Source: an uncultured Chthoniobacteraceae bacterium (lineage in GTDB: Bacteria; Verrucomicrobiota; Verrucomicrobiia; Chthoniobacterales; DYNR01). Taken from it: 64,000 nucleotides of DNA. A program made the translations under genes and the position numbers. Location: contig CAZQRL010000003.1 in assembly GCA_964595865.1 (NCBI GenBank), forward strand, positions 174,083 to 238,082. The letters are read 5' to 3'. The notes under the pieces were generated by a model. It was not told the origin of the DNA and did not search any database. It saw only the letters and a list, made by a program, of their open reading frames with translations. Shown here piece by piece: positions 1 to 62,208 of the stretch. Position 1 is the stretch's first letter; each line of letters begins with the position of its first letter.

Positions 1-111
1 AGACACCCTTCTACCTCATCACCTGGGAGTCCTAAAGAGCGGACCCCCACGGGAGGGCGCTTTAATTTAGATGAAGAATGGCCGGAATCAGGCTATGTTT
101 CCCACCGTCTT

Positions 112-1578
112 ATGAGATCCTTCCGCCTGCACCAACTTCTCGGCGCATGCCTGCCGACTTCGGCGCGCCGGCCTTTCGGGATTTTCCTGGCGGCTTGGGG
201 GCTCATTTTGCCGGGGATGTTCGCGCCGCTCGCGCAGGCTTTGGAGCCGCAAATTCCCAAAGGTGCGGTAGTGGTGCTGCCCATGCAGGGAGAGATTTCT
301 GAAGCCCAATTCCTCATCCTACGACGGGCCCTCAAAGCTGCGGAGAGTGCCGAAGCGGCAGCGTTTGTCATCAACATGGACACGCCTGGGGGAAGCCTTG
401 GAGCCGGGGTGAAAATTCTCAATGCTCTGCTGGAGAGCCGTGTGCCGACGATTACCTGGGTCAATACGAATGCTGGTTCGGCCGGGGCTTTGATCGCTCT
501 GGGGACCCAGCGGATTTATATGGCTCCGGTGAGTGCGATCGGCGCCGCCGCTCCCGTAATGGGTGGGGGACAGGAAATCCCTGAAACCATGAGCGCCAAG
601 ATCATCTCCTATTACTCGGGCTATTTCCGCAGTGCCGCCGAGAAAAACGGCTACAACCCGGAGTTGGCGGAAGCTTTCATCAACAAAGACAAGGAGCTGA
701 AAATCGGGGACACGGTGATTTCCAAAGCAGGAGAATTGCTGACCTTGTCCGCGCAGGAAGCGGTGCGCAGGTTTGACGACAAGCCTCTCCTGGCCTCGGG
801 GATTGCGGCCAATGTGCGCCAGTTGGCCGATGAAGCCGGTTTGCAAGAGGCGCCGATTTTTGCGTGGGAGCCCAGCGGATTTGAAAAGGCCGCGCAATGG
901 ATCACCACCTTGGCTCCGCTTTTCCTCCTCGGCGGCATCATCGGGGCTTACATGGAGTTCAAAACTCCTGGCTTTGGAGTGCCCGGATTCGTCGCGGCGA
1001 TCTGCTTTTTGCTATTTTTTGCCGGGCACTACATCGCTGGCCTCACGGGCTTCGAAGCCGCCACGCTCTTCCTCTTCGGTTTTTTCCTTGTGCTCTTCGA
1101 ACTCCTCTTTTTCCCCGGCCTTTTTTTCATTTCCGCCATTGGTCTGCTCTGCATGGTCGGCGGGATCCTTTTCGCCATGGTGGATTATTGGCCGGAGCGG
1201 GAGTTTGAAATTTCTTTTGCCACCTTGGGTCCTTCGCTCATCAACTTCGCCATCACCATTCTCCTGGCGGCGATTATCATTTCTCTTCTGGCCCGCTACC
1301 TGCCTTCGCTGCCGGTCTTTCGCACCTTTTTTCTCCGGGCGCACAGCCCGGTCGGGCCTTCGATTCCAGCTCCGGTGCTGAGTTTGGTGCAGGAGAAAAT
1401 CGAGCCGGGGCAGACCGGGTTGGCGCGGACGGATTTGCGGCCGGTCGGCAAGGCGGATTTTGGGGCGTTAGTCACGGAGGTGAAAACCGAGGGCGATTTT
1501 GTGCCTGCCGGGAGCAAAGTGCGAGTGCTGCGTCGTGAGGGCAACCAATGGGTCGTCGCCGCCGTTCCTCCGACCTGA
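112..1578 (+). CDS. NfeD-family membrane-bound ClpP-class serine protease
   Basis: 488-aa ORF with a signal-like N-terminus. ClpP/SppA-like core (FVINMDTPGGS, NTNAGSAGALIALG), a block of hydrophobic helices (aa ~270-400), and a C-terminal NfeD OB-fold-like tail (GQTGLARTDLRPVGKADFG...VRVLRREGNQWVV). Confidence 0.8.
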   Translation: MRSFRLHQLLGACLPTSARRPFGIFLAAWGLILPGMFAPLAQALEPQIPKGAVVVLPMQGEISEAQFLILRRALKAAESAEAAAFVINMDTPGGSLGAGVKILNALLESRVPTITWVNTNAGSAGALIALGTQRIYMAPVSAIGAAAPVMGGGQEIPETMSAKIISYYSGYFRSAAEKNGYNPELAEAFINKDKELKIGDTVISKAGELLTLSAQEAVRRFDDKPLLASGIAANVRQLADEAGLQEAPIFAWEPSGFEKAAQWITTLAPLFLLGGIIGAYMEFKTPGFGVPGFVAAICFLLFFAGHYIAGLTGFEAATLFLFGFFLVLFELLFFPGLFFISAIGLLCMVGGILFAMVDYWPEREFEISFATLGPSLINFAITILLAAIIISLLARYLPSLPVFRTFFLRAHSPVGPSIPAPVLSLVQEKIEPGQTGLARTDLRPVGKADFGALVTEVKTEGDFVPAGSKVRVLRREGNQWVVAAVPPT

Positions 1579-48610: not shown

Positions 48611-49837
48611 ATGGTGGATGCTTTGTTTCCTGCGACGCGCCAAGAGGCCCAGGCCCGGCTGGTGGAGTTTCTTGAACTGGTGCCGTCCTATGCGGTGGAG
48701 AGGAATTACGTGCGTCCGGGGCATGGGAATGTCTCGCGGCTTTCTCCGGCGATTCGGCACCGATTGCTCACGGAGGAGGAGGTGGTTGGCGCGGTGCTGG
48801 CGCGACATTCTTTTTCCCGCTCCGAGAAATTTCTCCAGGAAGTTTGTTGGCGCAGTTACTGGAAGGGATGGCTGGAGTTGCGCCCGGGGGTCTGGAGGCG
48901 CTATTTGGCGGCGGTCGAGCGACTGCAGCATGAGGTCTCTCCGGCGCTTCAGGCCCGACTACAGGCGCTTTGCGAGGGAACTTCGCCCTCGGGAATCATG
49001 AACGAGTTTAGCCGGGAGCTGTTGCGCACGGGCTACCTGCACAATCACGCGCGGATGTGGTGGGCTTCCTATTGGATTCACCATCAGCAACTGCCGTGGG
49101 AACTAGGGGCGGCCCATTTATTCTCTCACTTGCTGGATGCGGACCCGGCCAGCAACACCCTGAGCTGGCGATGGGTGGCGGGTTTGCAAACCCCCGGGAA
49201 AACCTATTTGGCCCGCACGGGCAACATCACGAAGTATTGTGCACCGGAGCTTCTGAGCAAAGCCGGGGGTATCGGTTTGGCAGAGGAGGTGGAGCCAGTC
49301 TCGATAAGCGAGGAGACGGCGCCGGAGACGCCGGCGAATGAGGACCCTTTTGCGCCTTGTTCGCTAAACAAGGCCTTGTCGGCCAATACGGCTCTGCTCC
49401 TGCACGATGAGGATTTTTCCTTGGAAAACAGCCCGCTGCGGAGGGTTCGTCCGCATGCCCTGTTGCAGTTTGCGCCTGCACTTCCGACCTCTGAGCCACT
49501 GGCGCGCTGGCGGCAAACGGCGCGAGAGGATGCAGCGGGCCGAGCCCAAGCGCATTTCGGGCTGGCACCGCTGCGGTGCGCTACCCCGCAGGAAATCCGT
49601 GCCGCCTGCGAGGCGGGCGGGATTACGACTTTGGCCCTGATTCGCCCTGCGGTCGGTCCTTTGCGGGATGCTCTGCACGGATTGGCGGGGGAGCTGGCCG
49701 CAGTCGGGGTGCGGCTGCACGCGGTGCGTCGTTCTTGGGACGAAAAACTCACGCCGCTGGCCCGGCGGGGCTTTTTTCCATTCTGGGAAAAGGTTGGAGG
49801 GCGCCTGCGCAAGCACGGGCTGGAGGGGTGGCAATGA
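48611..49837 (+). CDS. photolyase/cryptochrome-superfamily protein with inverted topology (N-terminal FAD-binding domain, no N-terminal alpha/beta domain); NewPHL-like
   Basis: 408 aa. Residues 1-~225 align by motif to the FAD-binding domain of photolyases ([60 protein letters not shown]). The C-terminal ~170 aa ([16 protein letters not shown]...) looks like a small alpha/beta domain. Confidence 0.7.
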
Positions 49838-50004
49838 ATGGGGTGGCCAAGGCGCACCTTCCCGAGAAGCTCTGCGTGGTTTGCGGAAGGTGGTTTCGCT
49901 GGCGGAAGAAATGGGAACGTTGCTGGGAGGAGGTGCGGTATTGCAGCGAGGCGTGCCGTCGGAAGCGCCGGGAAGCTCCCGGCGAGCAGGAAGGGGTGCG
50001 ATGA
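49834..50004 (+). CDS. DUF2256 zinc-ribbon protein
   Basis: 56 aa: [49 protein letters not shown] overlaps occur with both neighbours (49834-49837 and 50001-50004). Confidence 0.75.
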
Positions 50005-51521
50005 GTGACGGAGCGGTGCACTTGGTGTGGTTCAAAAGAGATTTGCGTCTCGAAGACCATGAGCCGCTCTTCCGGGCGGCAAGAGAGGGGGCAATTCTGG
50101 GGCTCTACATTTACGAACCGGAACTTCTCCACTCCCCGGAGTTCTCCGCGGCGCATCTGCTATTCATCAATGAGAGCCTCCGTGAGCTGGAGGCCGGGCT
50201 GGCGGAGCGCGGCGGGCGTCTGATCACGCGGGTGGGGGAGGCGGTGGAGGTGTTGGATCGGTTGGCCGAAGAGTGGCCGGTGGCGGGGCTGTGGTCGCAC
50301 GCCGAAACCGGAAATGCCCTCACTTACGCACGGGATTTGCGGGTGGCATCTTGGGCGCAGCGCCGCGGGATTCGTTGGCAGGAGTTTCGGCAGGATGGGG
50401 TGATTCGTCGGTTGCGCCAGCGGGATGGTTGGGCCGCCCGCTGGGCCGAGCGGATGAACCGCCCCGTCTTCCCCGTTCCGACTGCCTTGCGCAGTCCCCA
50501 GCAAATTCCCAGTCACGGGATTCTCGGGCCGGAAATTTTTTCCCTGCTGCCCAATGATAAAACCGAGACCCAGCCGGGAGGCATGGCGGCGGCGCGCGAG
50601 CGGCTGGAGTCTTTCCTCATGTATCGCGGGGTGAACTACCGGGCGGAAATGTCCAGTCCGGTGACGGGGTGGGAAGGGTGTTCACGGCTGAGTCCGTATC
50701 TGGCTCTCGGATGCATCAGTCTGCGGACAGTGCATCGGGCGGTGGCGGAGCGCCTGGGCGATTTGCGTTTGGCGGAGCGGATGGGAGCGGCGGTGGATCG
50801 TCGGTGGTTCGGCTCCCTCGCCAGCTTCTCTGCCCGATTGCGCTGGCATTGCCATTTCATGCAGAAACTCGAAGACGAGCCCCGCATCGAGTTTGAGAAT
50901 TTTTCCCGTGCCTACGATGGATTGCGGGAGGAATTTTCGCAGACGGCGGAAGCCCAGGAACGGCTGCGGTCCTGGCAGGAGGGGAGAACGGGGTATCCGA
51001 TGGTGGATGCGTGCATGCGGGCGGTGCGGGCCACCGGTTGGCTGAACTTTCGCATGCGTGCCATGGTGGCCAGTTTTGCCGCCTATCATCTCTGGCTCCA
51101 TTGGCGCGAGCCGGCGGTTTTTCTCGCGCGGCACTTTCTGGATTTTGATCCGGGGATACATTTTAGCCAATTTCAGATGCAATCCGGGACCACGGGGATC
51201 AACACGGTGCGCATTTACAGCCCGGCCAAGCAGGTGCTGGATCAAGATCCTGGAGGGGAGTTCATCCGCCGATGGGTGCCGGAGTTGTGCGAGGTGCCAA
51301 ACTCCTGGTTGCCGCAGCCGGAACGGATGTCGGAGGATCTGCAGCGGCGCTTCCACTGCGTCATCGGAGTGGATTATCCCCCGCCGATCGTGGAGCACGC
51401 GGAGGCCGTGCGGCAGGCCCGCGAACGTCTCGCGGCCGTGCGGCGCAGTGCCTCTGCCCGTGGAGAATCCCGCCGGGTGCTGCTGCGGCACGGCAGCCGC
51501 AAACGTCCGGCGCGCCGATAG
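50001..51521 (+). CDS. cryptochrome/photolyase family protein with canonical topology
   Basis: ORF 49668..51521, with the start at 50001 ([23 protein letters not shown]). The FAD-binding domain carries [64 protein letters not shown]. Confidence 0.85.
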
Positions 51522-51852: not shown

Positions 51853-54800
51853 ATGCCACACCTCCGCCGCTTTACCCGTTCAGCTCTTCGCTGGTCTCTT
51901 CCTCTCTGGCTCCTCGTGGCGTTGGGCTCCTCGGTTGGGAGAGCCGAGAATGGCAACGACTCGACTCCCGATGCGTGGCGTGAGGGTGCAGTGCCAGAGC
52001 CCTTGCGGAAGTGGATTCCTTGGGCACTGTGGGAAAAAGCGGGCTCTTTGGCGGCGCCGCCGATCTTCAATCACCCGCAGGAACGTTGGGGGCTCTGGAC
52101 TTCCGGGCTCACGCTTGTGGCCAGAAATGATGGCGCGGATTTCACGCTGCAAGTGCGGAATTTTCAGGCGGGCTGGGTAGGCTTGCCAGGGGGAAGCCAA
52201 CCGGGACAGGTCTGGCCGCAGAGTGTGCGGGTGGAGAAGGAAGCGGGAATGGGTATCGCGCCTTTAGCCGGGGTGCCTCCATCCCAAAGGACGGATTCCG
52301 CCGTGGTTCTGGAGCGCGAGGGGCGTCCCGTCGTCTGGCTGGGAGCTGGGAGCTGGAAAGTCACGGGGCGGTTGGTCTGGGCCGGGCTGCCAGAGTGGGT
52401 ATTGGTGCCCGCAGATGCGGGAATTTTGCGGGTGGAGGTTCTTGGGCGCGAGCTGACTCTCCCGATGCTGGATGGGGAAGGCAAGCTTTGGCTGCTGCAA
52501 GAACCTCCGGCGGAGCTGGCGGCGGAAAATTTCCTCGGGCTGAAGGCCTATGGGTTGCTGGAGGATGGATCGCCGTTGTGGTTGCGGCTGGAGCTGGAAC
52601 TCACGGTGGCGGGCGAAACCCGAGGGGAAAATCTTGGACGGGTGCTGCCGGAGGGCTGGCGTTTGGCGGCCGTGGAGTCGCCCATCCCGTTCGTGCTTGA
52701 TCCCAGCGGAGAGGCCTTGGCGCGGGTGAAGCCCGGGCGCTGGGTCGTGCGGGTCTCGGCTTTTCGCTCGGATAATCCGCAGGAGCTGCTCTTTCCTGCG
52801 GGGGCGAAGTTTTCCGATTGGCTTGTCGGGTGGCGGGCGAAGCCCGATTTCCGCAGTGTGGAAATCGAGGGAGGCATTGCCGTGGATGCGCAGCAGACCA
52901 CGTATCCGGAGCCGTGGAGAGATGGGCCGGTGTATCGTTGGGAAAAGGGCGCGACCTTGCGTTTGGTGGAGCGTCTGCGTGGTCCGGGTGAGGGGGCAGC
53001 AGCCGGGTTGGCGATTTCCCGCGATTGGTGGCTGGGCGAAGATGGGCGTGAGCTGATCTTCCGCGACGAAATCCAGGGGACGGCGCAGCGTCTTTGGCGC
53101 TTGGATGCCGCTCCCGGTCAGGAGCCCGGGGCGGTGAGGGAAAATGGAGCCGGTCTGCTTCTTACCCGCAACCCACTGACCGGACTCCCGGGCGTGGAAA
53201 TCCGCCAGCCGGATTTCCAGCTCCAAGCCACCGGGACGATGAAACGCAGCGCGAAACTGGCCGCCAGTGGCTGGCAGGCCAATGCCGATAGCTTGGAGAT
53301 CCGCTTGCATTTGCCGCCAGGGTGGCGGGCTTTGGCGCTTTGGGGGCCGGATCAAGTCGAAGGCGAATGGATCACCCAATGGTCATTACTCGATTTGTTT
53401 CTGGTGCTGGTGTTTGTCCTGGCGGTCTTCCGGCTCTACGGCCTGGGAGCTGCGGTTCTGGCGTTGTTGGCGTTGGTGCTTTCCTATCACGAACCGGGTG
53501 CGCCACGGTTTGCCTGGTTGGCTTTGTTGGCCCCCCTGGCGTTGCTCGGCTTGGTGCAACATGCCCGGGTGCGGCTTTGGTTGCGGGCCTGGAAGTGGGT
53601 TTCAGCTCTGGTTTTGCTGGCGGTCTTGGTGCCGTTTCTTGCGCGGCAGGTGCAGCAGACGCTCTTTCCGCAACTGGAGTTTCCCGGCCGTGGTGGCTCC
53701 TCGCTTTGGGGTGGGGCTGATGGGGCGGCAGAGCCGGTTTCCTCGGGGGAGAGTGGAAGGTTGCGGCGGCAGGTGATGCCCCCGATGGCTGCGCCTGCGG
53801 AAATGGCCCTGGCCGATGCGGTGCGGGAGTATTCCTCCGCGTGGGGTGGCAAAGTGGCGCCAGCAGCGGAGAATGAGGTGAATCTGGCCTTCGATCCGAA
53901 GGCGCGGATTCAGACCGGACCGGGGATTCCCAACTGGTCTTGGCGGACGGTTTTTCTGCGCTGGAGTGGGCCACTGGGGCCGGAGGCGACGCTGGAGCCG
54001 GTGCTCATTCCGCCGGGAGTGGAACGGATCTTGGGAGTTTTGCGGGTGCTTTTGGGAGTTGCTTTGGCGGGTTGGCTCTTGCGGGTGCCGGTGCGGCTGC
54101 GTTCGGAGCCCTCGGCGGGCGGTGGGGGTGGATGGTCCGCGGCCACAGCCGCGCTGCTCGTCGGGGCCTTGCTTCTTGCCGCGGGCTCGGCCGCTCGAGC
54201 GGAATCCTTCCCGCCCCCGGAGCTATTGCAGACTTTGCAAGACCGCTTGCTGGAACCCGGTGAGGCCTTTCCCCAAGCGGCGGAAATCCCCCTGGCCAAG
54301 CTCACCGTGGCAGGACGACAGCTTACCGCCGAACTCGAAGTGCATACCGTAGCTGTCGTCGCGGTGCCCTTACCCGGGCGGCTGCCGGATTGGTCGCCGG
54401 TTCGCATCGAGGTCTCGGGCGAGGCCCTGCCTGCGCTGCGTCGGCACGATGGGTTTATCTGGGTGGCGTTGCCGCCGGGTGTGCATCGAGTGCGTTTGCA
54501 AGGGCTGCTTCCGGAAGTGTCGGAGTGGGCTTGGTCTTATGTCCTGCGGCCCAAGCGGGTGGAGGTCAGCGCTCCGGGCTGGACGGTTAGCGGCTTGCGT
54601 CCGGATGGGGTGCCAGAGAGCCAGCTCCTTTTGGTGCGCGAACGGGCGGAGGAGGCCCCTGGGGATGTAGAGACAAACTTTGATCGGCAGCCATGGGAAA
54701 ATTTGGTGCAAGTGCGGCGAACGCTGGAGCTCGGCTTGCAATGGCGGGTGCGAACGGAAGTGCTGCGGCTCACGCCCACAGGTCGGGCCTTCGCTCTGCG

Positions 54801-56076
54801 ATTGCCTTTATTACCCGGAGAAAATCTCCTCACGGGGCAGTTGCAAACCGGGATGGAGTCTGGGCAGCGATGGGTGGAGGTGAACTTTGCTGCTGGACAT
54901 CAGCAGCTCGCTTGGGAGGGAGAGTTGCCGCAAACTCCCGCAATCACCCTGCAAGCCGCCAAGACCTCTGCGTGGGTGGAGTTTTGGCAGGTGCGAGTCT
55001 CCCCGGTATGGAACTTGCGGCTGGCTGGCTTGCCCCCGGTTTTTTCCAGCAATACTTCGGAGCTTTTGCCGACGTGGTTTCCTTGGCCGGGTGAAGAAGT
55101 GCAACTTTCCCTGGAGCGGCCAGAGGCTCTTCCTGGAGCGACGCTCACGGTGGATCGCGTGAGCTACGCGGTTAGCCCCGGTCCGCGGCAGAGTCTGGGA
55201 AGGCTGGAAGGCCACTTGCGGGCCAGCTTGGCCGACACCTTGGCGGTTAATTTGCCCGCGGGGGTGGAGGTCACGGAGGTGCGGGTCGCCGGGGAACTGC
55301 TGCCGGTGCGTATGGAGGAGCAGGCGCTGCTTCTACCGATTCGCCCGGGTGAACAAGATTGGCAAGTCGGTTGGCGCCTGAGTGAGGGTTTGGGCCTTCG
55401 CACTGCGGCTCCGCCGGTGAAGCTATCGGCTGCTCCGACCAACGTGGATGTGCAAATGGAGGTTCCCGCGGACCGTTGGGTGCTCTGGACTACGGGACCG
55501 CTGCGGGGGCCGGCCGTGCGGTTTTGGACTGTCTTGGCGGCAGCCTTGCTGGCGGCTGGGGTCTTAGCCCGGGTGAGAAACTCTCCCTTGCGCTTTTGGG
55601 AGTGGGTGCTGCTGGCTTTGGGACTCACCCAAGCCTCGCTTCCGGTGGCAGGTCTGATTGTGGCTTGGCTTTTTCTCCTGGCTTGGCGGGGGCAATCCAG
55701 TTTCCAAAGTCTGCCGCGCTGGGCTTACAACCTCCTGCAAATCCTGCTCATCCTTGCCTCTCCGCTGGCATTGCTGGCGCTGCTCTGGGTGGTGGCGGCT
55801 GGGCTTTTGGGAGATCCGCAAATGTTCATTACGGGCTGGGGTTCGACTCCGCAACGACTCAACTGGTTTGTTTCGCCCGGAGCGGCTGAATTACCCGCAG
55901 TGACCTTCTACTCGGTTTCTCTGTGGTGGTATCGCCTGGCGATGCTCCTCTGGGCTTTGTGGTTGGCCATTGCCGTGTTGCGTTGGTTGCAGATTGGCTG
56001 GCGCAATTTGCTCAGCGGAGGCTTCTGGCGCCCAGCAGCTGCCAAGCCCCCCAAGCTGCCGACGGCAGGAGCGTAA
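51853..56076 (+). CDS. 1407-aa uncharacterised bipartite envelope protein (two repeats of signal-like segment, large extracytoplasmic region, TM cluster)
   Basis: N-terminal signal LWLLVALGSSVGRAEN and ~480 aa without TM segments, then a TM cluster (aa ~510-600). An internal signal-like AALLVGALLLAAGSAARAES (nt 54133-54204) and ~440 aa without TM segments, then a C-terminal TM cluster. I recognise no family motif. Confidence 0.7.
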   Translation: MPHLRRFTRSALRWSLPLWLLVALGSSVGRAENGNDSTPDAWREGAVPEPLRKWIPWALWEKAGSLAAPPIFNHPQERWGLWTSGLTLVARNDGADFTLQVRNFQAGWVGLPGGSQPGQVWPQSVRVEKEAGMGIAPLAGVPPSQRTDSAVVLEREGRPVVWLGAGSWKVTGRLVWAGLPEWVLVPADAGILRVEVLGRELTLPMLDGEGKLWLLQEPPAELAAENFLGLKAYGLLEDGSPLWLRLELELTVAGETRGENLGRVLPEGWRLAAVESPIPFVLDPSGEALARVKPGRWVVRVSAFRSDNPQELLFPAGAKFSDWLVGWRAKPDFRSVEIEGGIAVDAQQTTYPEPWRDGPVYRWEKGATLRLVERLRGPGEGAAAGLAISRDWWLGEDGRELIFRDEIQGTAQRLWRLDAAPGQEPGAVRENGAGLLLTRNPLTGLPGVEIRQPDFQLQATGTMKRSAKLAASGWQANADSLEIRLHLPPGWRALALWGPDQVEGEWITQWSLLDLFLVLVFVLAVFRLYGLGAAVLALLALVLSYHEPGAPRFAWLALLAPLALLGLVQHARVRLWLRAWKWVSALVLLAVLVPFLARQVQQTLFPQLEFPGRGGSSLWGGADGAAEPVSSGESGRLRRQVMPPMAAPAEMALADAVREYSSAWGGKVAPAAENEVNLAFDPKARIQTGPGIPNWSWRTVFLRWSGPLGPEATLEPVLIPPGVERILGVLRVLLGVALAGWLLRVPVRLRSEPSAGGGGGWSAATAALLVGALLLAAGSAARAESFPPPELLQTLQDRLLEPGEAFPQAAEIPLAKLTVAGRQLTAELEVHTVAVVAVPLPGRLPDWSPVRIEVSGEALPALRRHDGFIWVALPPGVHRVRLQGLLPEVSEWAWSYVLRPKRVEVSAPGWTVSGLRPDGVPESQLLLVRERAEEAPGDVETNFDRQPWENLVQVRRTLELGLQWRVRTEVLRLTPTGRAFALRLPLLPGENLLTGQLQTGMESGQRWVEVNFAAGHQQLAWEGELPQTPAITLQAAKTSAWVEFWQVRVSPVWNLRLAGLPPVFSSNTSELLPTWFPWPGEEVQLSLERPEALPGATLTVDRVSYAVSPGPRQSLGRLEGHLRASLADTLAVNLPAGVEVTEVRVAGELLPVRMEEQALLLPIRPGEQDWQVGWRLSEGLGLRTAAPPVKLSAAPTNVDVQMEVPADRWVLWTTGPLRGPAVRFWTVLAAALLAAGVLARVRNSPLRFWEWVLLALGLTQASLPVAGLIVAWLFLLAWRGQSSFQSLPRWAYNLLQILLILASPLALLALLWVVAAGLLGDPQMFITGWGSTPQRLNWFVSPGAAELPAVTFYSVSLWWYRLAMLLWALWLAIAVLRWLQIGWRNLLSGGFWRPAAAKPPKLPTAGA

Positions 56077-56086
56077 CCGCGCGGGC

Positions 56087-58204
56087 TCAGGCTAGCGTCC
56101 GGCGTTGAGCGGCCTTCTGGAGGGTTTGGCGCAGGGCCAAAAGTTGGATGGGTTTGTTTAAGTAATCATCCATGCCGACTTGGAAGCAGCGTTCGCGATC
56201 GGCGGGGAAGATATTGGCCGTAAGGGCGGCAATGAAAGCCCGGTGCGTTGCTGCTGCAGCGCTTTCCCGGGCGCGCAGTTGCCGGGTGGCTTCAATGCCA
56301 TCGAGTTCGGGCATGTGTAGATCCATGAGAATGCAATCCATGGGCTGGGTCTGGCAGAGCGCCAAGGCGGCGGCACCATTTTCCGCGGCGAGGGGTTGGT
56401 AGCCGAGTTTTTCCAAGAGGGTAAGGAGCAGTTTGCGATTCACTCGGTCATCTTCCACGACGAGGATCTTCAGAGGATACTGCGCGGCAAAGGAAGGTTC
56501 GATGCGGGCCGGGGTGATGGGGATTTTCGGCGGCCGGGCCTGCTCTGGCGCGGGCAGTTGCAGGTGGAGAATGAACTCTGTGCCGCGGCCGAGCTCGCTG
56601 CTGAGATCCAGACGCCCTCCCATTAAATCCGCTAGCCGACGACAGATGGCCAAGCCCAGCCCGGTGCCTCCGTGGCGGCGGGAAATACTCGCATCGGCTT
56701 GGGTGAAGGGCTGGAAGATCCGCTCGACCTCGGTGGGGGCGATCCCGGGGCCCGTATCGCGAACAAAAAACTCCTGCCCCGCGCCATCCGGGGCGCTGCG
56801 CCAGCCGAAGGTGACGGTGCCGCTTTCGGTGAATTTGATCGCGTTGCCGACGAGGTTGAGCAGGACTTGCCGCAGCCGACCAGCATCGCCGACTAACTGT
56901 TCGGGCGCATCGTGTGGCAAGGAGAGCTCCAGGCGCAGTCCTTTGGCGGCGGCTTCCGCAGCAAAGCTATGGCGAATTTCGGCAAACACTTCTCCTGGTG
57001 AGAAAGGAGCCGCCACGGTCTGCATGCGCCCTGCTTCCAGTTGGCTGAAATCCAGGACGTCATCAATGATGCGCAGCAGGGACTGGCCGCTGGAGTGAAT
57101 GATGCCAATTAACTCCCGACATTCCTCGGGCAGCTCGCAATTTTGGCTGAGCAACTCGGAGAACCCCAGGATGCTATTGAGCGGGGTGCGAATTTCGTGA
57201 CTCATCACCGCGAGGAATTCGCTTTTGGCCCGGTCGCCTGCGAGGGCCTTCTCAGCCAGGACTTGTTCTCGAGCCAAAGCCTCCGAGAGGCGTTTCTCGC
57301 GTTCTTTTTGCTCGGTAATGTCCCGCTGGATGCCGACAAAGTGGGTGATCTCGCCTTCGGCATTGCGGATGGGTGCGATGTGCCACTCCACGTGATAGGG
57401 CGTGCGATCTTTGCGATAGTTGATGGTGCTGCCACGGAAGGGCAGTCCCGCTTCGAGGTGCTTTCGCAGCTCTGCAAGCACCGCGTGATTGGTATCGGGC
57501 CCCTGCAAAATCCGGGGAGTCTTTCCGAGAACTTCTTCCGCTGGGTAGCCCGTGAGGGTGCAGAAGGCTGGATTGACAAAAACGATTTTCGGTCCCGGTA
57601 GATCGAGTTGGGCGTCGGTGATGAGAATGGCTTCGCTGGCTTGCAAGACGGCCGATTGGAAGAGATGCGAGGCCGCTTCGGCTTTTTTCCGCGCGGCGAT
57701 GTCTTCTTCCAACTGGCGGTTGGTTTCCTCGAGCTCCAGAGCCTTTTGTTCCAGCTTGCGCACCAAAGTCTGGTTGTAAACGAGCAGCAAGTCGTTTTCC
57801 CCAGCCGCTGGGGGGGGAGGATGTGGGGAACAATGGCGGTCCAGGCGGAAGGACTCTTCGAGCCAACGGAGAATCACCTCCGGCTCGGCGGGTTTGAGCA
57901 AATAGGCATCAGCTCCCAAATGCAGAGCCAGCTTCTCATCCTCCGGATCGGTGTAGGTGGCGGTGAAAACCAGGAAAGGGATCGGGGCCAAGTCGGGATC
58001 AGCCCGCCAATGGCGCAGGAGCGTGAACCCATCCATGACTGGCATCAGCAGGTCGGAAATGACCACCTCGGGCGGGGACTGGCGCGCTTTTTCCAGAGCT
58101 TCGGCCCCATGGCGGGCAATCGTAACCGTATGCCCGTTCCCCTCCAAGAGCACGGTGAGCAGATACACCGTCTCGGGATGGTCATCCACCAGGAGAATTT
58201 TCAT
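56087..58204 (-). CDS. hybrid sensor histidine kinase/response regulator (REC-PAS-HisKA-HATPase-REC)
   Basis: ORF 56087..58318. The ATG at 58204 (MKILLVDDHPE) forms an ATGA overlap with the upstream RR. H-box HEIRTPLNSILGF, GTGLGLAICRRL, and receiver Asp contexts ISDLLMPVMDG and ILMDLHMPELDG. Confidence 0.85.
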   Translation of the reverse strand: MKILLVDDHPETVYLLTVLLEGNGHTVTIARHGAEALEKARQSPPEVVISDLLMPVMDGFTLLRHWRADPDLAPIPFLVFTATYTDPEDEKLALHLGADAYLLKPAEPEVILRWLEESFRLDRHCSPHPPPPAAGENDLLLVYNQTLVRKLEQKALELEETNRQLEEDIAARKKAEAASHLFQSAVLQASEAILITDAQLDLPGPKIVFVNPAFCTLTGYPAEEVLGKTPRILQGPDTNHAVLAELRKHLEAGLPFRGSTINYRKDRTPYHVEWHIAPIRNAEGEITHFVGIQRDITEQKEREKRLSEALAREQVLAEKALAGDRAKSEFLAVMSHEIRTPLNSILGFSELLSQNCELPEECRELIGIIHSSGQSLLRIIDDVLDFSQLEAGRMQTVAAPFSPGEVFAEIRHSFAAEAAAKGLRLELSLPHDAPEQLVGDAGRLRQVLLNLVGNAIKFTESGTVTFGWRSAPDGAGQEFFVRDTGPGIAPTEVERIFQPFTQADASISRRHGGTGLGLAICRRLADLMGGRLDLSSELGRGTEFILHLQLPAPEQARPPKIPITPARIEPSFAAQYPLKILVVEDDRVNRKLLLTLLEKLGYQPLAAENGAAALALCQTQPMDCILMDLHMPELDGIEATRQLRARESAAAATHRAFIAALTANIFPADRERCFQVGMDDYLNKPIQLLALRQTLQKAAQRRTLA

Positions 58205-58599
58205 GGGGCTGAGCTGGAGCGTTCCGTGCAGTGGGGGAGGTGGGAGCGCACCTCGTTGACGAAGGATTCTGGGTTGATCGGTTTTTCGATGTAGCCGTTG
58301 CAGCCGGCATCGAGGCACTTCTCGCGGTCACCAACCATGGCGTAGGAAGTGACGGCCACGATGGGCGTGGACTGGGTCTGAGGCATCTCGCGCAAAGCGC
58401 GGGAGACGGCGTGTCCATCCATTCCTGGGAGTTGGATATCCAGGAGGATCAGGTCCGGCCGATGTTCGCCAGCCAGCGCGAGGCCCTGTGGTCCATCGCT
58501 GGCGCAGATCACCTGGCAGCCATTCTGTTCCAGCAAGAAAGTGGCCAGGTAGCGGTTTTGTTCGTTGTCCTCAATAAGTAGAATCTTGGGGGTGGTCAT
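58201..58599 (-). CDS. single-domain (CheY-like) response regulator
   Basis: 132 aa: KILLIEDNEQN...DLILLDIQLPGMDG...VAVTSYAM...GYIEKP. Confidence 0.9.
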   Translation of the reverse strand: MTTPKILLIEDNEQNRYLATFLLEQNGCQVICASDGPQGLALAGEHRPDLILLDIQLPGMDGHAVSRALREMPQTQSTPIVAVTSYAMVGDREKCLDAGCNGYIEKPINPESFVNEVRSHLPHCTERSSSAP

Positions 58600-60104
58600 G
58601 GCGGGGAAACGGGCAAGATGAGGGTGAAGCGACTTCCGCGGCGCGGCTCGCTCTCCACCGAGATACTGCCGCCCAGTAGGCTAGCCAAACGATGGCAGAT
58701 GGCAAGTCCGAGCCCGGTGCCCTCATGCTGTCGGGTCAACCCGGAGTCGAGTTGGTGGAAGGGTTGGAAGAGATGCGGGAGGTCGCTGGCGGCAATGCCC
58801 AAGCCCGTGTCTTCCACTGTGATGAGAACCTGCTCCCGGGCGGCGGAGGATGTGGGCTCGGGCAGGGTTCTGCTGGCACGCAAAGATACCGTGCCAGTCT
58901 CGGTAAACTTTACGGCATTGCTCAGCAGATTGAGGAGGATCTGCTCAAAGCGCCGCCGATCGGTCTGAATGACCCCCAACTCGGCCGGGATATGCACTTC
59001 GAGCTGCAGATTTTTTTTCACGGCGAAGGGTCGGATGGTCTCAGAGACCCGTTGCAGGGATTGGCAAAGATCCAGAGCGTGAAAGCGCACTTCGAGTTGC
59101 CCGGCTTCGATTTTCGAGATGTCGAGGACATCATTGATGAGGTCAAGAAGGTGGCGCGCGCTCGAGCGCACCATCTCCAATTGCTTTTCCTGCTCCGCCG
59201 TCAGAGGACCCGCCAACCGCTGCAGAATCACTCCAGTAAAGCCGAGGATGGAATTGAGGGGAGTGCGGAGTTCATGCGACATAGTTGCGAGGAAGGCCGA
59301 TTTGAGTTGGTCGGCGGATTCCGCCCGGGAGAGAGCCGAGGCCAGCTGCTCGGTGCGGGCGGCCACCAGGCGCTCCAGGTTTTGATTGAGTTCCCGCAGC
59401 TCTTCCTCAATGCGCTGACGGGCCTGCGCCTCGGCGCGGTGGGCAGAAAGATCCAATCCCATGCCAATGAGACACGGTCCACCATCAAATTCCACCCGCC
59501 GACCATTGAAGAAAAAGGGCAGGGCCTCGCCCTCCCGGGTAAGCAGGTGCGCTTCGATGGAAGAATCCCCATGGGTGAATACCTCACGGATGCTGGCCTG
59601 CACGGCTTCCCGATCTTGGGGCGCAATCAACTCGAGGGGCTGGAGGCGCGCGATTTCCTCGCCTGAGCGTCCAGTGATGATTTCCAGGTTGCGATTCCAG
59701 CGCAGGAACGTGCCGTGATCGTCGAAGACATAGAGCACTCCGGGGGTGGCCTCGATCATGGTGGCGGAAAAGCGCCGTTCATTTTCTGCCTGCGTTTCGG
59801 CGCGGATTTGCTCGATCCGACGCTCATAGCTATCGGCGACTGCTCCGTAGGCCCAGCGCATGAGCAGCAGCAACAGCAGAGAGGTTACGAGGACGAAAAG
59901 CAGGCCCTTGAAGACGCTTAGATGCACCCAGGTTTCCGCTTCGTCGGCAAACCAGAGCAGCGCGTGGTCGGAAAAAAGAATCCAGGCTCCGGCGAAGGAG
60001 GCGTAGATCAGCGTGATGGCCAGAGCGCGGGGAAAAACCCGAGCGCGTAAGGGAGGGCCTAGAGGGGAGAGGGTCTGGTTATGCTCGGCAGAGGAGGTGC
60101 TCAT
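58596..60104 (-). CDS. membrane-bound PAS sensor histidine kinase
   Basis: 502 aa with two N-terminal TM segments, a PAS domain, H-box HELRTPLNSILGF and GTGLGLAICHRL. Its stop overlaps the RR start (ATGA). Confidence 0.85.
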   Translation of the reverse strand: MSTSSAEHNQTLSPLGPPLRARVFPRALAITLIYASFAGAWILFSDHALLWFADEAETWVHLSVFKGLLFVLVTSLLLLLLMRWAYGAVADSYERRIEQIRAETQAENERRFSATMIEATPGVLYVFDDHGTFLRWNRNLEIITGRSGEEIARLQPLELIAPQDREAVQASIREVFTHGDSSIEAHLLTREGEALPFFFNGRRVEFDGGPCLIGMGLDLSAHRAEAQARQRIEEELRELNQNLERLVAARTEQLASALSRAESADQLKSAFLATMSHELRTPLNSILGFTGVILQRLAGPLTAEQEKQLEMVRSSARHLLDLINDVLDISKIEAGQLEVRFHALDLCQSLQRVSETIRPFAVKKNLQLEVHIPAELGVIQTDRRRFEQILLNLLSNAVKFTETGTVSLRASRTLPEPTSSAAREQVLITVEDTGLGIAASDLPHLFQPFHQLDSGLTRQHEGTGLGLAICHRLASLLGGSISVESEPRRGSRFTLILPVSPP

Positions 60105-60246
60105 GCTGGGAAAAGTCTCCCGCGCAGCATAGCGATTGCCAGTCGGCTAGCGAGCTGGAATGGCTCTCCGAGCAAAATATCCCTGGTCGTCCACTGACAG
60201 AAAACCGGTCCTTTTTCCCTTGAACCCGCCGACGCTCTTCCCAAAG

Positions 60247-62208
60247 ATGCCCCTCCTTTCCCATATCACCGACTGCATGATCGCCGATATCCCTGACATC
60301 CACGCCTACCTCAAACAACACGAGGAGAAAGATTTGCTGCGCTTCCTCACCTGCGGCAGCGTGGACGATGGCAAATCCACCCTCATCGGCCGCCTCCTTT
60401 ACGACACCAAGATGATCTACGAGGATCAGTTGGCGGCGGTAATGCGCGACTCCAAAGTCCATGGGACGACCGGCTCCGACTTTGACCCCGCCCTCCTCAC
60501 CGATGGGCTGAAAGCCGAGCGGGAACAAGGAATCACCATCGATGTGGCCTACCGCTACTTCTCAACCGATCGGCGGAAATTCATCATCGCCGATACGCCC
60601 GGCCACGAACAATACACCCGCAACATGGCCACCGGGGCCTCAAATTGCAACCTGGCCATCATCCTCGTGGATGCGCGGCACGGCGTGGTCACCCAGACTC
60701 GCCGACACAGTTTTATCGTCTCCCTACTGGGGATCAAACACGTCGTGGTGGCGGTCAATAAAATGGATTTGGTGGACTGGTCGGAGGAGGTTTTCGAGCG
60801 GATACGTACTCAGACCAATGACTTCGCGGCCCGACTCAATTTCACGGACCTGCATTTCATTCCCATCTCGGCTTTGCAGGGAGACAATGTGGTGGAGCGC
60901 AGTGCCAACACCCCTTGGTATGACGGGCCCTCCCTGTTGCACCACCTCGAGACGGTTAACATCGCCTCGGACCGCAACCTCATTGACCTCCGTTTTCCGG
61001 TGCAATACGTCATCCGCCCGAACCTCGATTTTCGTGGCTTTGCGGGTACGCTGGCTTCGGGGATTCTCCGCGTGGGCGATCCGGTTTTGGTGGCTGCTTC
61101 GCAGCGGCGTTCGCGGGTCAAGGGGATCCTGCGTGGTGGGGTGCCGACCGAGCAAGCGGTGGCGCCGATGAGTGTTGTGGTTACGCTGGAGGATGAGATT
61201 GATGCCTCGCGCGGCGACATGCTGGTGCATCCGAACAACCTCCCGCAGGTGGATACCGAGGTTGAAGCCATGATGGTCTGGATGCACCCCGAAGCCGCGC
61301 GCTTCGGCTCCACCTACCTCGTCAAACACACCACCACCATGGCTCCGGCGACTTTGACCAAGCTGCGCTACAAAATGGATGTCAACACTCTCCGCAAACA
61401 GCCAGAAAGTGCGGGCGGCACCTTGGAAATGAACGAAATCGGGCGGGTGCATCTCTCCTTGCACCGGCCCATCGCCTTCGATGCCTACTCCCGCAACGCT
61501 CCGACCGGAGCGTTCATCGTGATTGACCGCATCAGCAACGCCACGGTTGCCGCCGGAATGATCGTGGATCGCCTCGCTGCCGCCGATCGCACGGCCCAAG
61601 CGGCTCCAACGAGCAAAAACATTCGCCCTGAGCCTTCCTTGGTGACACCTGCGGAGCGACAAAAAGTGGCCGGGCAGAAAGCCGTGACGCTGTGGCTCAC
61701 GGGCTTGAGCGGCTCGGGGAAATCCACCATCGCGCAGGCCCTGGAAAAGCGGCTCCTCGCGGCGGGGCACCTCGCTTACATTCTCGACGGCGATAATCTC
61801 CGGCATGGCCTCAATCGTGACCTTGGGTTTTCCGCGCCCGATCGGGCGGAAAATATCCGCCGCGTGGCCGAAGTTTCCCGTCTTTTCAACCAGGCGGGCG
61901 TGATGATAATTACCAGTTTCATCTCTCCCTATCGGCAAGACCGGGAAATTGCCCGGGCGATCATCGGCGAGGAGCAATTTCTCGAAATCCACGTTAGCAC
62001 CCCACTGGAAATTTGCGAGAGCCGGGATGTCAAAGGCCTCTACAAAAAGGCCCGGGCGGGAGAGATCACGCAATTCACGGGGATTTCCGATCCCTACGAG
62101 GCCCCAGAGGCCCCGGCTTTGGTCTTGCCCGCGCACGAGCTGGAAGTCGAGGAGGCAGCCAACCGGCTTTACGGATTGTTGCTGGAACGCGGCTGCTTTT
62201 CCGCTTAA
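60247..62208 (+). CDS. cysNC: bifunctional sulfate adenylyltransferase subunit 1 / adenylylsulfate kinase
   Basis: ORF 60160..62208, with a probable start at 60247 or 60277. GTPase motifs [28 protein letters not shown]-terminal APS-kinase P-loop [13 protein letters not shown]. Confidence 0.88.

Follow-up and report, generated by a model that had tools for sequence, protein, structure and literature searches.

The 1407-residue protein encoded at 51853..56076 (+) of the window, meaning the whole 64,000-nucleotide stretch of DNA under analysis, is a member of a very large bacterial inner-membrane family that has no name. It is neither rare nor an orphan. The protein is composed of two tandem modules of the same plan, which supports an origin either in a tandem duplication or in the fusion of two paralogous genes. 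The junction between the modules contains a second signal peptide-like segment, and its signal-peptide character is conserved family-wide. The explanation favored here, which falls just short of an even bet, is that the protein is a duplicated inner-membrane precursor whose internal signal is cut and whose two products stay paired as the subunits of a periplasmic platform.

Family and modular plan

The protein is encoded in at least 557 species genomes, and module 2 alone, used as the query, matches 2263 clusters at 50% identity. Homologues are full-length and 41-58% identical. They are found mostly in Verrucomicrobiota, Planctomycetota, and Kiritimatiellae, with a second, non-PVC clade in other phyla; members also occur in Acidobacteriota, Myxococcota, and Proteobacteria. 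The initial annotation had recognized no family and had proposed profile searches and the homologue survey that gave these counts. The searches agree with it. The Pfam, NCBIfam, PADLOC (anti-phage defence), and PHROGs (phage) models do not match the protein, nor do PDB sequences or any HMM of a characterized family, and Pfam searches with the whole protein and with each half give nothing at E up to 1. Neither a conserved neighbour, a fused enzyme domain, nor a function-indicating motif was found for the family.

Each module is made up of a signal peptide, an all-beta periplasmic domain of ~450 residues, four membrane helices, a periplasmic hairpin, and a returning helix (Table 1). The plan is thus a 6+6 helix repeat, based on AF2 helices, hydropathy, and loop charges, and the whole architecture is repeated at 79 of 79 genomic loci and in more than 100 homologous proteins. 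Conservation within the protein is highest in the membrane helices, which contain the invariant polar residues D514, E547, R725, R731, T1259, Q1260, and R1361.

Table 1. Features of the gene and its predicted product.
Feature	Residues	Position	Strand	Characteristics
Whole gene, duplicated envelope protein precursor		51853..56076	+	1407 codons plus stop
Signal peptide 1	1-31	51853..51945	+	Basic n-region, h-region LPLWLLVALG, c-region G-R-A
Periplasmic domain A	32-509	51946..53379	+	All-beta, several beta-sandwiches
First beta-sandwich of module 1	86-171	52108..52365	+	W-x-PLPG ... WP motif; hhalign
Membrane helices a-d	510-604	53380..53664	+	Invariant D514, E547, Q599; hydropathy, AF2
Variable linker, periplasmic, probably disordered	605-676	53665..53880	+	AF2 pLDDT below 50
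Conserved periplasmic segment 1	677-722	53881..54018	+	NLxYDxKARIQTGPGxPxWxW; here NLxFDxKARIQTGPGIPNWSWR...
Membrane helix 5, out-to-in	723-745	54019..54087	+	Invariant R725, R731
Short cytoplasmic loop	746-760	54088..54132	+	Also basic n-region of internal signal peptide
Internal signal peptide / helix 6	761-783	54133..54201	+	Ends A781-R782-A783
Periplasmic domain B	784-1221	54202..55515	+	All-beta; AF2 model mf94450b4056a
First beta-sandwich of module 2	815-881	54295..54495	+	Homologue of residues 86-171 (hhalign)
Membrane helices a'-d'	1222-1319	55516..55809	+	Hydropathy, AF2, charge bias
Conserved periplasmic beta-hairpin segment 2	1320-1356	55810..55920	+	GDPQMFITGWGS...
Last membrane helix (out-to-in) and basic cytoplasmic tail	1357-1381 and 1382-1407	55921..56073	+	AF2 helix 1357-1387

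The topology fits two extracytoplasmic modules, as first proposed, and is supported by loop charge bias, hydropathy, and AF2 helices. Across the family, the loops assigned to the cytoplasm are all net positive (+1.1 to +3.5), and the short ones on the periplasmic side are neutral or negative. Kyte-Doolittle (KD) hydropathy finds no hydrophobic segment in residues 32-509 or 784-1221, matching the ~480 and ~440 residues that had been described as free of membrane segments. The earlier helix count was right about the first cluster of four (510-604) and overlooked the conserved helix 723-745, so that the true plan is 6+6. The second cluster is likewise present, at 1222-1381, though it is actually four helices, a periplasmic beta-hairpin, and then one helix. 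The path assigned to the short b and c helices is tentative.

Module 1 starts with a signal peptide, M1-A31, that bears out the N-terminal signal seen at the outset, with a predicted cut before E32 (...LVALGSSVGRA/EN). N-terminal signal peptides are equally variable among homologues and have AxA-like end sites. Domain A was modelled by AF2 (me3b188823cfb) with a mean pLDDT of 83.5 and ~34 strands. The AF2 helices that follow it (512-529, 531-544, 552-565, and 571-604; pLDDT 82-95) agree with KD hydropathy, have a column conservation of 0.62-0.89, and are joined by loops whose charges alternate in and out. The linker varies in length and is poorly conserved among homologues, some of which have an insert of ~200 residues weakly resembling STN, Secretin_N, or the PilQ N0 domain. 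Since these are periplasmic domain types, the insert fits the periplasmic side given to the linker, although the matches are weak. Conserved segment 1 sits between the first helix cluster and helix 5, in a position equivalent to the module 2 beta-hairpin, and its invariant residues are A684, I686, Q687, T688, G689, P690, P693, W695, W697, W704, and P707. Helix 5 is identified by hydropathy, an AF2 helix at 721-743, and a conservation of 0.70. The loop behind it has a family mean of 3.1 K+R vs 0.4 D+E.

In module 2, the domain B region of the AF2 model has a pLDDT mostly above 90. The AF2 helices are 1224-1240, 1248-1258, 1263-1279, and 1289-1316; the a'-d' region has a conservation of 0.63-0.79 with invariant G1257-L-T-Q1260, R1279, and G1317-L-L-G1320. 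Segment 2 is modelled with strands at 1335-1340 and 1351-1356, and P1322, M1324, G1328, S1331, L1336, W1338, and P1348 are invariant. The last helix has a conservation of 0.83, and the tail has a net charge of +3.5 in the family.

The modules are considered duplicated because their first beta-sandwiches align, their best PDB match is shared, and their loop charges fit a repeat. In hhalign, residues 86-171 align with 815-881 at a probability of 80.6% (E 1.3e-5, 66 columns), and four off-register controls are weaker (0.0085 to 0.16). Homology between the modules is detectable over these ~66 aligned columns only, and the membrane parts give no profile-level similarity signal in hhalign. The helix lengths run in parallel, with 18/14/14/34 residues plus one helix in module 1 and 17/11/17/28 plus one in module 2. 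Domains A and B each independently give OST subunit 1 as the best PDB match when their AF2 models are searched with Foldseek. Together with the conservation of the internal signal, these results support the initial suggestion of a duplication or fusion of two secreted, membrane-anchored units.

The internal signal peptide

The second signal-like stretch with a cleavage-type motif, noticed in the initial annotation, corresponds to residues 761-783 (...LLLAAGSAARA/ES), with a predicted signal peptidase I site before E784. Cleavable Sec signals have a basic n-region, an h-region of ~10-15 residues, small residues at -3 and -1, and no Pro at +1. Residues 746-783 have all of these features: R750 and R752, an h-region, A781-x-A783, and then E784. 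The same anatomy is family-wide, with an n-region that is basic, an h-region that is short and variable, and AxA preceding D/E/Q. In 71 of 105 homologues, A-x-A-[QE] lies no more than 30 residues upstream of the invariant P787, where ~0.04 per 30-residue window is expected from the frequency of the motif elsewhere in the same proteins. The design is shared by 77 of 80 members of the distant non-PVC clade.

Helix 723-745 and the internal signal behind it make up a cytoplasmic hairpin, the signal being its second arm. Helix 723-745 is the returning helix that closes module 1 and would bring the chain back to the cytoplasm, so that module 1 ends there. Residues 761-783 may then serve as a start-transfer sequence within the chain, leading to the export of domain B. 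As the full anatomy of a cleavable signal is kept across the family, we infer a cut by signal peptidase I after A783. The predicted products are an N-fragment of residues 32-783 and a C-fragment of residues 784-1407. These two paralogous subunits would remain associated as a pseudo-symmetric pair, a proposal that, like the cut, comes from sequence.

The same duplicated 12-helix plan could also stay uncut, with the segment serving as TM helix 6, a signal anchor, in one chain of ~150 kDa; this is a real possibility, if well short of probable. All reliable assemblies hold both modules in one ORF, so that no naturally split version is clearly seen. In bacteria, signal peptidase I rarely cuts at internal sites, and small residues at the end of a helix could serve packing. 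Against an uncut helix stands the variability of the segment, which resembles that of the N-terminal signal peptide and far exceeds that of any other helix: column conservation is 0.39, vs 0.29 for signal peptide 1 and 0.62-0.89 for all other helices. The h-region is short, and different phyla retain the canonical A-x-A with D/E/Q behind it. The h-region and c-region together span a median of 18 residues, vs 17 for the uncharged stretch of signal peptide 1 up to its small-x-small site. In homologues where spacer residues have been inserted, AxA stays beside the hydrophobic core rather than beside domain B. AF2 packs the segment without confidence (pLDDT about 50 or lower). These properties favor the cleaved precursor.

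Fold, function, and gene integrity

The periplasmic domains resemble Ost1 at the level of the modelled fold. The best Foldseek PDB matches of domain A are human RPN1 (6s7t_E, E 2.4e-6) and yeast Ost1 (6ezn_A, E 1.6e-5). Those of domain B are Ost1 (6c26_1, E 1.4e-8; 8agb_E, 6ezn_A, and 7oci_A) and RPN1 (8b6l_O, 8pn9_E, and 6s7o_E); the chain identities were checked. The Ost1 matches have a Foldseek probability of 1.00, yet TM-scores of 0.12-0.25 and an rmsd of about 18 A. They are fold-level matches, with generic beta-sandwiches such as integrin legs and the M1 aminopeptidase N-domain close behind.

True homology to ribophorin I/Ost1, with the protein as an accessory subunit presenting substrates to a membrane GT-C glycosyltransferase, would make the family a bacterial counterpart of OST accessory subunits. 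The top rank of Ost1/RPN1 for both modules points this way, as does one locus (L082) in which a PMT_2 GT-C glycosyltransferase gene directly follows and Bac_transf and GT2/GT4 genes are nearby. This homology is unlikely: the TM-scores are low, and Pfam Ribophorin_I (PF04597) has no sequence match in 28 family members even at E up to 10. No association with STT3/GT-C is conserved in the neighbourhoods of 79 loci, and neither the other 91 loci nor the window has a PMT_2 or other GT-C gene near the family gene. A combined picture, in which a widespread bacterial "polyprotein" family (>2000 clusters) is split by signal peptidase into two paralogous subunits whose arms are distantly related to an OST accessory subunit, is also improbable, if a shade less so.

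No catalytic motif was found in the periplasmic arms, as the initial annotation had stated. Because the arms are without one and conservation peaks in the membrane helices, our guess is a complex without catalytic activity, a periplasmic platform for binding or scaffolding that would serve an envelope process and handle unfolded polypeptide or glycan.

The membrane part also invites comparison with a secondary transporter or flippase of the RND type, built from two repeats of a helix, a large periplasmic loop, and five helices. The RND plan is a 6+6 helix repeat with a large periplasmic domain between helices 1 and 2 and cytoplasmic ends. A 6+6 topology in which each repeat has its large loop behind the first helix, highly conserved membrane helices, and invariant intramembrane polar residues are all consistent with transport. 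Such a role is nevertheless improbable, on a par with Ost1 homology. Profiles for ACR_tran, MMPL, SecD_SecF, Patched, or other transporter families in Pfam and NCBIfam do not match, and the 50 best Foldseek matches of each model include neither RND structures nor other transporters. Beta-sandwiches make up the periplasmic domains, in place of the alpha/beta sub-domains of RND proteins, and each repeat opens with a helix that looks cleavable.

Downstream, 10 nt separate the gene from the stop of a hybrid histidine kinase at 56087, which is convergent and has a response regulator and a second kinase behind it. This three-gene phosphorelay is where it had been reported, but the hinted two-component link is not conserved. 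No neighbour is conserved across 79 loci, and the phosphorelay is therefore a coincidental one.

The ORF is intact in the ORF list and translation, as claimed. One reading frame runs across the module junction in more than 100 homologous proteins and at 79 of 79 loci, which come from different species, and the junction itself (helix 5, basic loop, and signal peptide) is conserved, so these are not two mis-joined genes. The two-gene alternative, named beforehand as a test of the initial annotation, came out negative, with one gene in 79 of 79 species. Apparent module splits are seen in L082, L085, and L088, the latter two being frameshift artefacts. An artefact, whether a missed stop or frameshift near 54.1 kb that joins adjacent genes or an internal start giving two products, has a negligible chance, since its sole support is two-gene calls in some metagenome contigs, none of them from the window, and those examined come from frameshifted long-read contigs.

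Comparison with known systems

The N-terminal beta-domain of M1 aminopeptidases and the integrin alpha legs are beta-sandwich folds and second-rank Foldseek matches of both modules. These matches are generic, covering 150-230 columns without sequence similarity, and the protein lacks the zinc-binding HExxH/GxMEN catalytic domain of M1 aminopeptidases.

The lumenal domain of OST subunit 1 (yeast Ost1, human ribophorin I or RPN1) is similarly an all-beta multi-sandwich on the non-cytoplasmic side, followed by membrane sequence and without a catalytic site. Ost1 has one membrane helix and is a subunit of a GT-C enzyme complex, whereas the present protein has two such domains and 10-12 helices, with neither an associated glycosyltransferase gene nor detectable sequence similarity.

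The RND superfamily (AcrB, SecDF, and MmpL) is alike in plan only, with a 6+6 repeat, a large periplasmic domain after helix 1, and both ends cytoplasmic. It gives no sequence or fold match; the periplasmic domains here are beta-sandwiches, and the first helix of each repeat is a cleavable-type signal peptide.

The FbcH cytochrome b-c1 precursor of Bradyrhizobium japonicum is a polyprotein cut at an internal signal peptide. Bunyavirus Gn-Gc glycoprotein precursors are also polyproteins cut in this way (PMC7926653). As in the present protein, a single ORF encodes a membrane segment with a cytoplasmic end and, behind it, a signal peptide. This internal signal starts translocation anew and provides a site for signal peptidase, generating two membrane proteins. 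In FbcH and Gn-Gc, cleavage is experimental and the products are unrelated, whereas here the cleavage is predicted and the products are paralogous.

Gene structure and surroundings

The duplicated envelope protein is encoded on the plus strand at window positions 51853-56076. The ORF list and its translation give 1407 codons with no interruption. Residues were assigned from hydropathy and two AlphaFold2 models, one covering residues 1-620 (mean pLDDT 83.5) and the other residues 500-1407 (mean pLDDT 80.6, pTM 0.63). The protein falls into two modules, module 1 and module 2. Two signal-like stretches, two regions free of TM segments and two helix clusters are present as the initial annotation described them. 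Its two-module description holds in all but the helix count, as the helix at residues 723-745 had been overlooked.

Features of the duplicated envelope protein
Feature	Residues	Window positions	Sequence
N-terminal signal peptide	1-31		...GSSVGRA, then EN
First all-beta region (domain A), without hydrophobic segment	32-509		
Cys-pair and 19-aa-stretch differences	~59-80 and 130-148	52027-52090 and 52240-52296	
Four membrane helices	510-604		
Linker, poorly conserved	605-676		
Strongly conserved segment	677-722		NLxYDxKARIQTGPGxPxWxW
Additional conserved helix (helix 5)	723-745		
Short basic loop	746-760		
Second signal-like segment (internal signal peptide)	761-783		...AAGSAARA, then ES
Second all-beta region (domain B)	784-1221		
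Second set of four helices	1222-1319		
Conserved beta-hairpin	1320-1356		
Final helix	1357-1381		
Basic tail	1382-1407		

An identical protein is found in the public record (P0001, 1361 aa; locus L081, 3001-7086), where the start is placed 46 codons downstream, at GTG 51991 after GAGGG. This start removes the signal peptide present in nearly all homologues (window 51853-51990), and ATG 51853 is the better start.

It had been asked whether two genes were joined here by error. Among the best 80 loci (of at least 557 species that encode the protein), a greedy ORF call returned exactly one uninterrupted ORF in 79 (1235-1685 aa, median 1379), and in the remaining locus the gene runs past the contig end. 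Homologues align collinearly over their whole length, and many Trp, Pro, and Gly positions are invariant. Because of the single ORF in 79 of 80 loci and the collinear alignment, a missed stop or frameshift in the window is excluded, and the ORF is a single gene.

Some family representatives are short (616-870 aa). The apparent split genes at two homologous loci, L085 (7700-8120) and L088 (560-1100), were rejected after a three-frame reading. Both lie on long, frameshifted metagenome contigs, with the conserved hairpin in one frame, helix 5 in a second, and the internal signal peptide in a third. Because of such indel errors, genes look split and many of the family's database entries are too short. 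The short homologue P0316 is probably a truncated gene call. Locus L082 (3746-9783, metagenome contig) has a 752-aa module-1 gene and a 672-aa module-2 gene that begins at its own signal peptide, joined by a GTGA stop/start overlap. The overlap could reflect a genuine split or arise from a 1-nt error.

As first noted, the gene is followed by a convergent phosphorelay: its end and the stop of a hybrid histidine kinase are 10 nt apart, with a response regulator and a second kinase beyond. On the minus strand (window 56087-60104), the hybrid kinase is a PAS histidine kinase that carries two receiver domains, the response regulator has a single domain, and the second kinase is also a PAS histidine kinase. 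The suggested link to two-component genes fails on neighbour clustering, which found no conserved neighbour gene among 79 loci; the most frequent cluster is present at 6 of the 79, at varying positions. Neighbour strands are random (upstream, 40 plus vs 32 minus; downstream, 33 vs 36). Since neighbours are not conserved, the adjoining phosphorelay is coincidental. After the phosphorelay lies a plus-strand gene for a fused CysN/CysC (sulfate adenylyltransferase subunit 1/APS kinase; window 60160-62208). Upstream, at window 48611-51521, are two photolyase-related genes, one with FAD_binding_7 only and the other with a full DNA_photolyase domain plus FAD_binding_7. In the L081 gene calls on the same DNA, a small gene for a DUF2256 protein separates the two. 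The 617-aa ORF of this region is probably over-extended at its 5' end, because the public call is 506 aa.

Family and internal duplication

The initial annotation had recognised no family, and this is upheld, as neither the whole protein nor its halves match Pfam, NCBIfam, PADLOC, or PHROGs. A set of 28 homologues gave no recurrent weak match in these databases at E up to 10. The family profile found nothing real among PDB sequences, only noise matches to GPCR helices, and a literature search on the family found nothing. A word-indexed search brought up 238 full-length relatives (1300-1570 aa, 41-58% identity), every one labelled hypothetical. In a scan of one genome per species, at least 557 species encode the protein. 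The best 80 of these loci belong to Chthoniobacterales/Terrimicrobiaceae, Verrucomicrobiales, Akkermansiaceae, Pedosphaera, Limisphaerales, Methylacidiphilales, Kiritimatiellae, and Pirellulaceae, the last including the isolate Novipirellula herctigrandis CA13. Module 2 was also searched by itself with phmmer, exhaustively, over 1.84 billion cluster representatives; 2263 clusters matched at E up to 1e-3, and 1322 still did so at E up to 1e-30. A distant second clade carries the source labels Acidobacteriota, Myxococcota, Gamma- and Betaproteobacteria, Elusimicrobiota, and Binatia. The family of the envelope protein is large and uncharacterised, and its members share a tandem-repeat plan together with an internal signal peptide that is conserved.

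Members at loci L017, L058, and L066, and protein P0117, come from MAGs labelled Blastochloris, Nitrosopumilus, Blastochloridaceae, or Bacteroidia. The contigs in question probably belong to Verrucomicrobiota or Planctomycetota and were mis-binned. In the main PVC clade (Verrucomicrobiota, Planctomycetota, Kiritimatiellae), the window protein and its closest relative, P0002, are without the Cys pair (CPTPY ... C-x-WPS) seen at the start of domain A in other members. Both carry an extra 19-aa stretch (EKEAGMGIAPLAGVPPSQRTD). The second, non-PVC clade (P0192, P0218, P0261, and others) has a conserved C-x-P-x-C at the start of domain B, a candidate disulfide or metal site, where PVC members have SDAYPxAADIP.

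The two halves do not match each other by BLASTP. Profile-profile alignment with hhalign pairs the first beta-sandwiches, residues 86-171 with 815-881, at a probability of 80.6% and E 1.3e-5, and four off-register controls gave E 0.0085 to 0.16. The common pattern is L-x-L ... F ... V ... W-x-PLPG ... W-P ... V ... G-x-P ... G ... V-x-L-x-x-G-x-H/R. Between the modules, hhalign detected nothing in the membrane parts or in the later beta-domains. The order of elements is the same in both, with helices of 18, 14, 14, and 34 aa, then one helix, in module 1 and of 17, 11, 17, and 28 aa, then one helix, in module 2.

A structure search with the two AlphaFold2 models gave the same best PDB match for both halves, oligosaccharyltransferase (OST) subunit 1 (Ost1/RPN1). 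The 500-1407 model matches yeast Ost1 (6c26_1, E 1.4e-8; also 8agb_E, 6ezn_A, and 7oci_A) and human RPN1 (8b6l_O, 8pn9_E, 6s7o_E, and 6s7t_E). The 1-620 model matches 6s7t_E (E 2.4e-6) and 6ezn_A (E 1.6e-5). A sequence search confirmed the matched chains as 'Dolichyl-diphosphooligosaccharide--protein glycosyltransferase subunit 1'. Next in rank are integrin alpha legs, the M1 aminopeptidase N-terminal beta-domain, and PIG-T, and no fold match to the membrane domain is among the matches listed. Because TM-scores are low (0.12-0.25), the resemblance of the models to Ost1/ribophorin I is a fold-level likeness and no proof of homology. This subunit is usually regarded as specific to eukaryotes and Asgard archaea, and the likeness therefore merits a proper structural comparison. 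The hhalign result, the parallel element order, and the common best PDB match support the proposal of two tandem modules made by fusion or duplication.

Internal signal peptide and topology

The same order is near-universal at the internal signal in 106 sequences: a basic stretch, a short hydrophobic core, and a c-region ending in small-x-Ala, then Q, E, or D. In almost all of them, the next residues are a hydrophobic one and then domain B's invariant Pro. A strict A-x-A-[QE] lies within 30 aa upstream of this Pro in 71 of 105 homologues, against an expectation of ~0.04 per 30-aa window elsewhere in the same proteins. In homologues with inserted residues, the AxA keeps to the hydrophobic core. 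Column conservation is 0.39 for the internal signal and 0.29 for the N-terminal signal peptide, compared with 0.62-0.89 for all other helices. The median uncharged stretch up to the small-x-small site is 18 aa internally vs 17 aa at the N-terminus. AlphaFold2 confidence across the segment is ~50 or lower. In the non-PVC clade, 77 of 80 sequences with a recognisable anchor have the same design, typically ...P-A-R-A then D/E-L-P. Judged from these alignments, the internal segment is conserved as a predicted signal peptide and not as a sequence, and is the most distinctive feature of the protein.

The simplest reading is the joining of two paralogous genes, each of which would once have encoded a signal peptide, a beta domain, four helices, a hairpin, and a last helix. 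After joining, the second copy would have kept a functional signal peptide, and signal peptidase I probably still cuts it at the predicted site.

In each module, the signal peptide would run from in to out and lead to a periplasmic beta domain and four helices (out-in-out-in-out). A conserved periplasmic segment and a last helix from out to in would follow. This gives a proposed 6+6 plan with the module junction and the C-terminus in the cytoplasm. Across 28 homologues, the loops assigned to the cytoplasm are all net positive (+1.1, +3.3, +2.8, +1.4, +1.6, and +3.5), and short periplasmic turns are neutral or negative. This charge bias fits the predicted 6+6 plan and is consistent with the two extracytoplasmic modules first proposed. 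The packing of the helices we infer.

Some homologues (P0023, P0040, P0056, P0092, P0097, P0098, and P0099) have a ~200-aa insert in the variable linker, at a position corresponding to window 53665-53880. It weakly recalls an STN/Secretin_N pair of the PilQ N0-N1 type, with all matches below curated thresholds. Pfam STN matched in 4 of 10 members (best E 0.0026), Secretin_N at E 0.0052, and the PilQ N0 domain (4ar0_A) at E 0.073. These are periplasmic domain types.

Possible function and known counterparts

Conservation is highest in the membrane helices, where polar residues are invariant (D514, E547, Q599, R725, R731, T1259, Q1260, R1279, and R1361). No catalytic motif was found in the periplasmic arms. 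As a best guess, the protein would be processed into a pseudo-symmetric platform in the inner membrane to which a periplasmic polymer or partner binds. Less supported but possible are a function as a transporter and one beside a glycosyltransferase. At L082, a PMT_2 (GT-C) glycosyltransferase gene comes next, with Bac_transf and GT2/GT4 genes nearby. No PMT_2 gene was found near any other family member, and this neighbour is given little weight because it is confined to L082.

Hundreds of Verrucomicrobiota and Planctomycetota species, and members of several other phyla, have a conserved protein of ~1400 residues that lacks a name and a domain model. No role has yet been proposed for it, which leaves a concrete gap in knowledge of their cell envelope. 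A precise, cheaply testable cleavage hypothesis follows from the conserved internal signal peptide. If cleavage were confirmed in a family this large, with members in the thousands, studies of membrane-protein biogenesis would benefit and so would gene annotation, the latter because public records truncate the start and sometimes split the gene.

To our knowledge, natural bacterial membrane proteins processed at an internal signal peptide are very rare. A precedent for such cleavage is the B. japonicum cytochrome b-c1 precursor (fbcH). Viral glycoprotein precursors are another (PMC7926653). The envelope protein would bring together two types already described, repeat membrane proteins and polyproteins that contain an internal signal peptide.
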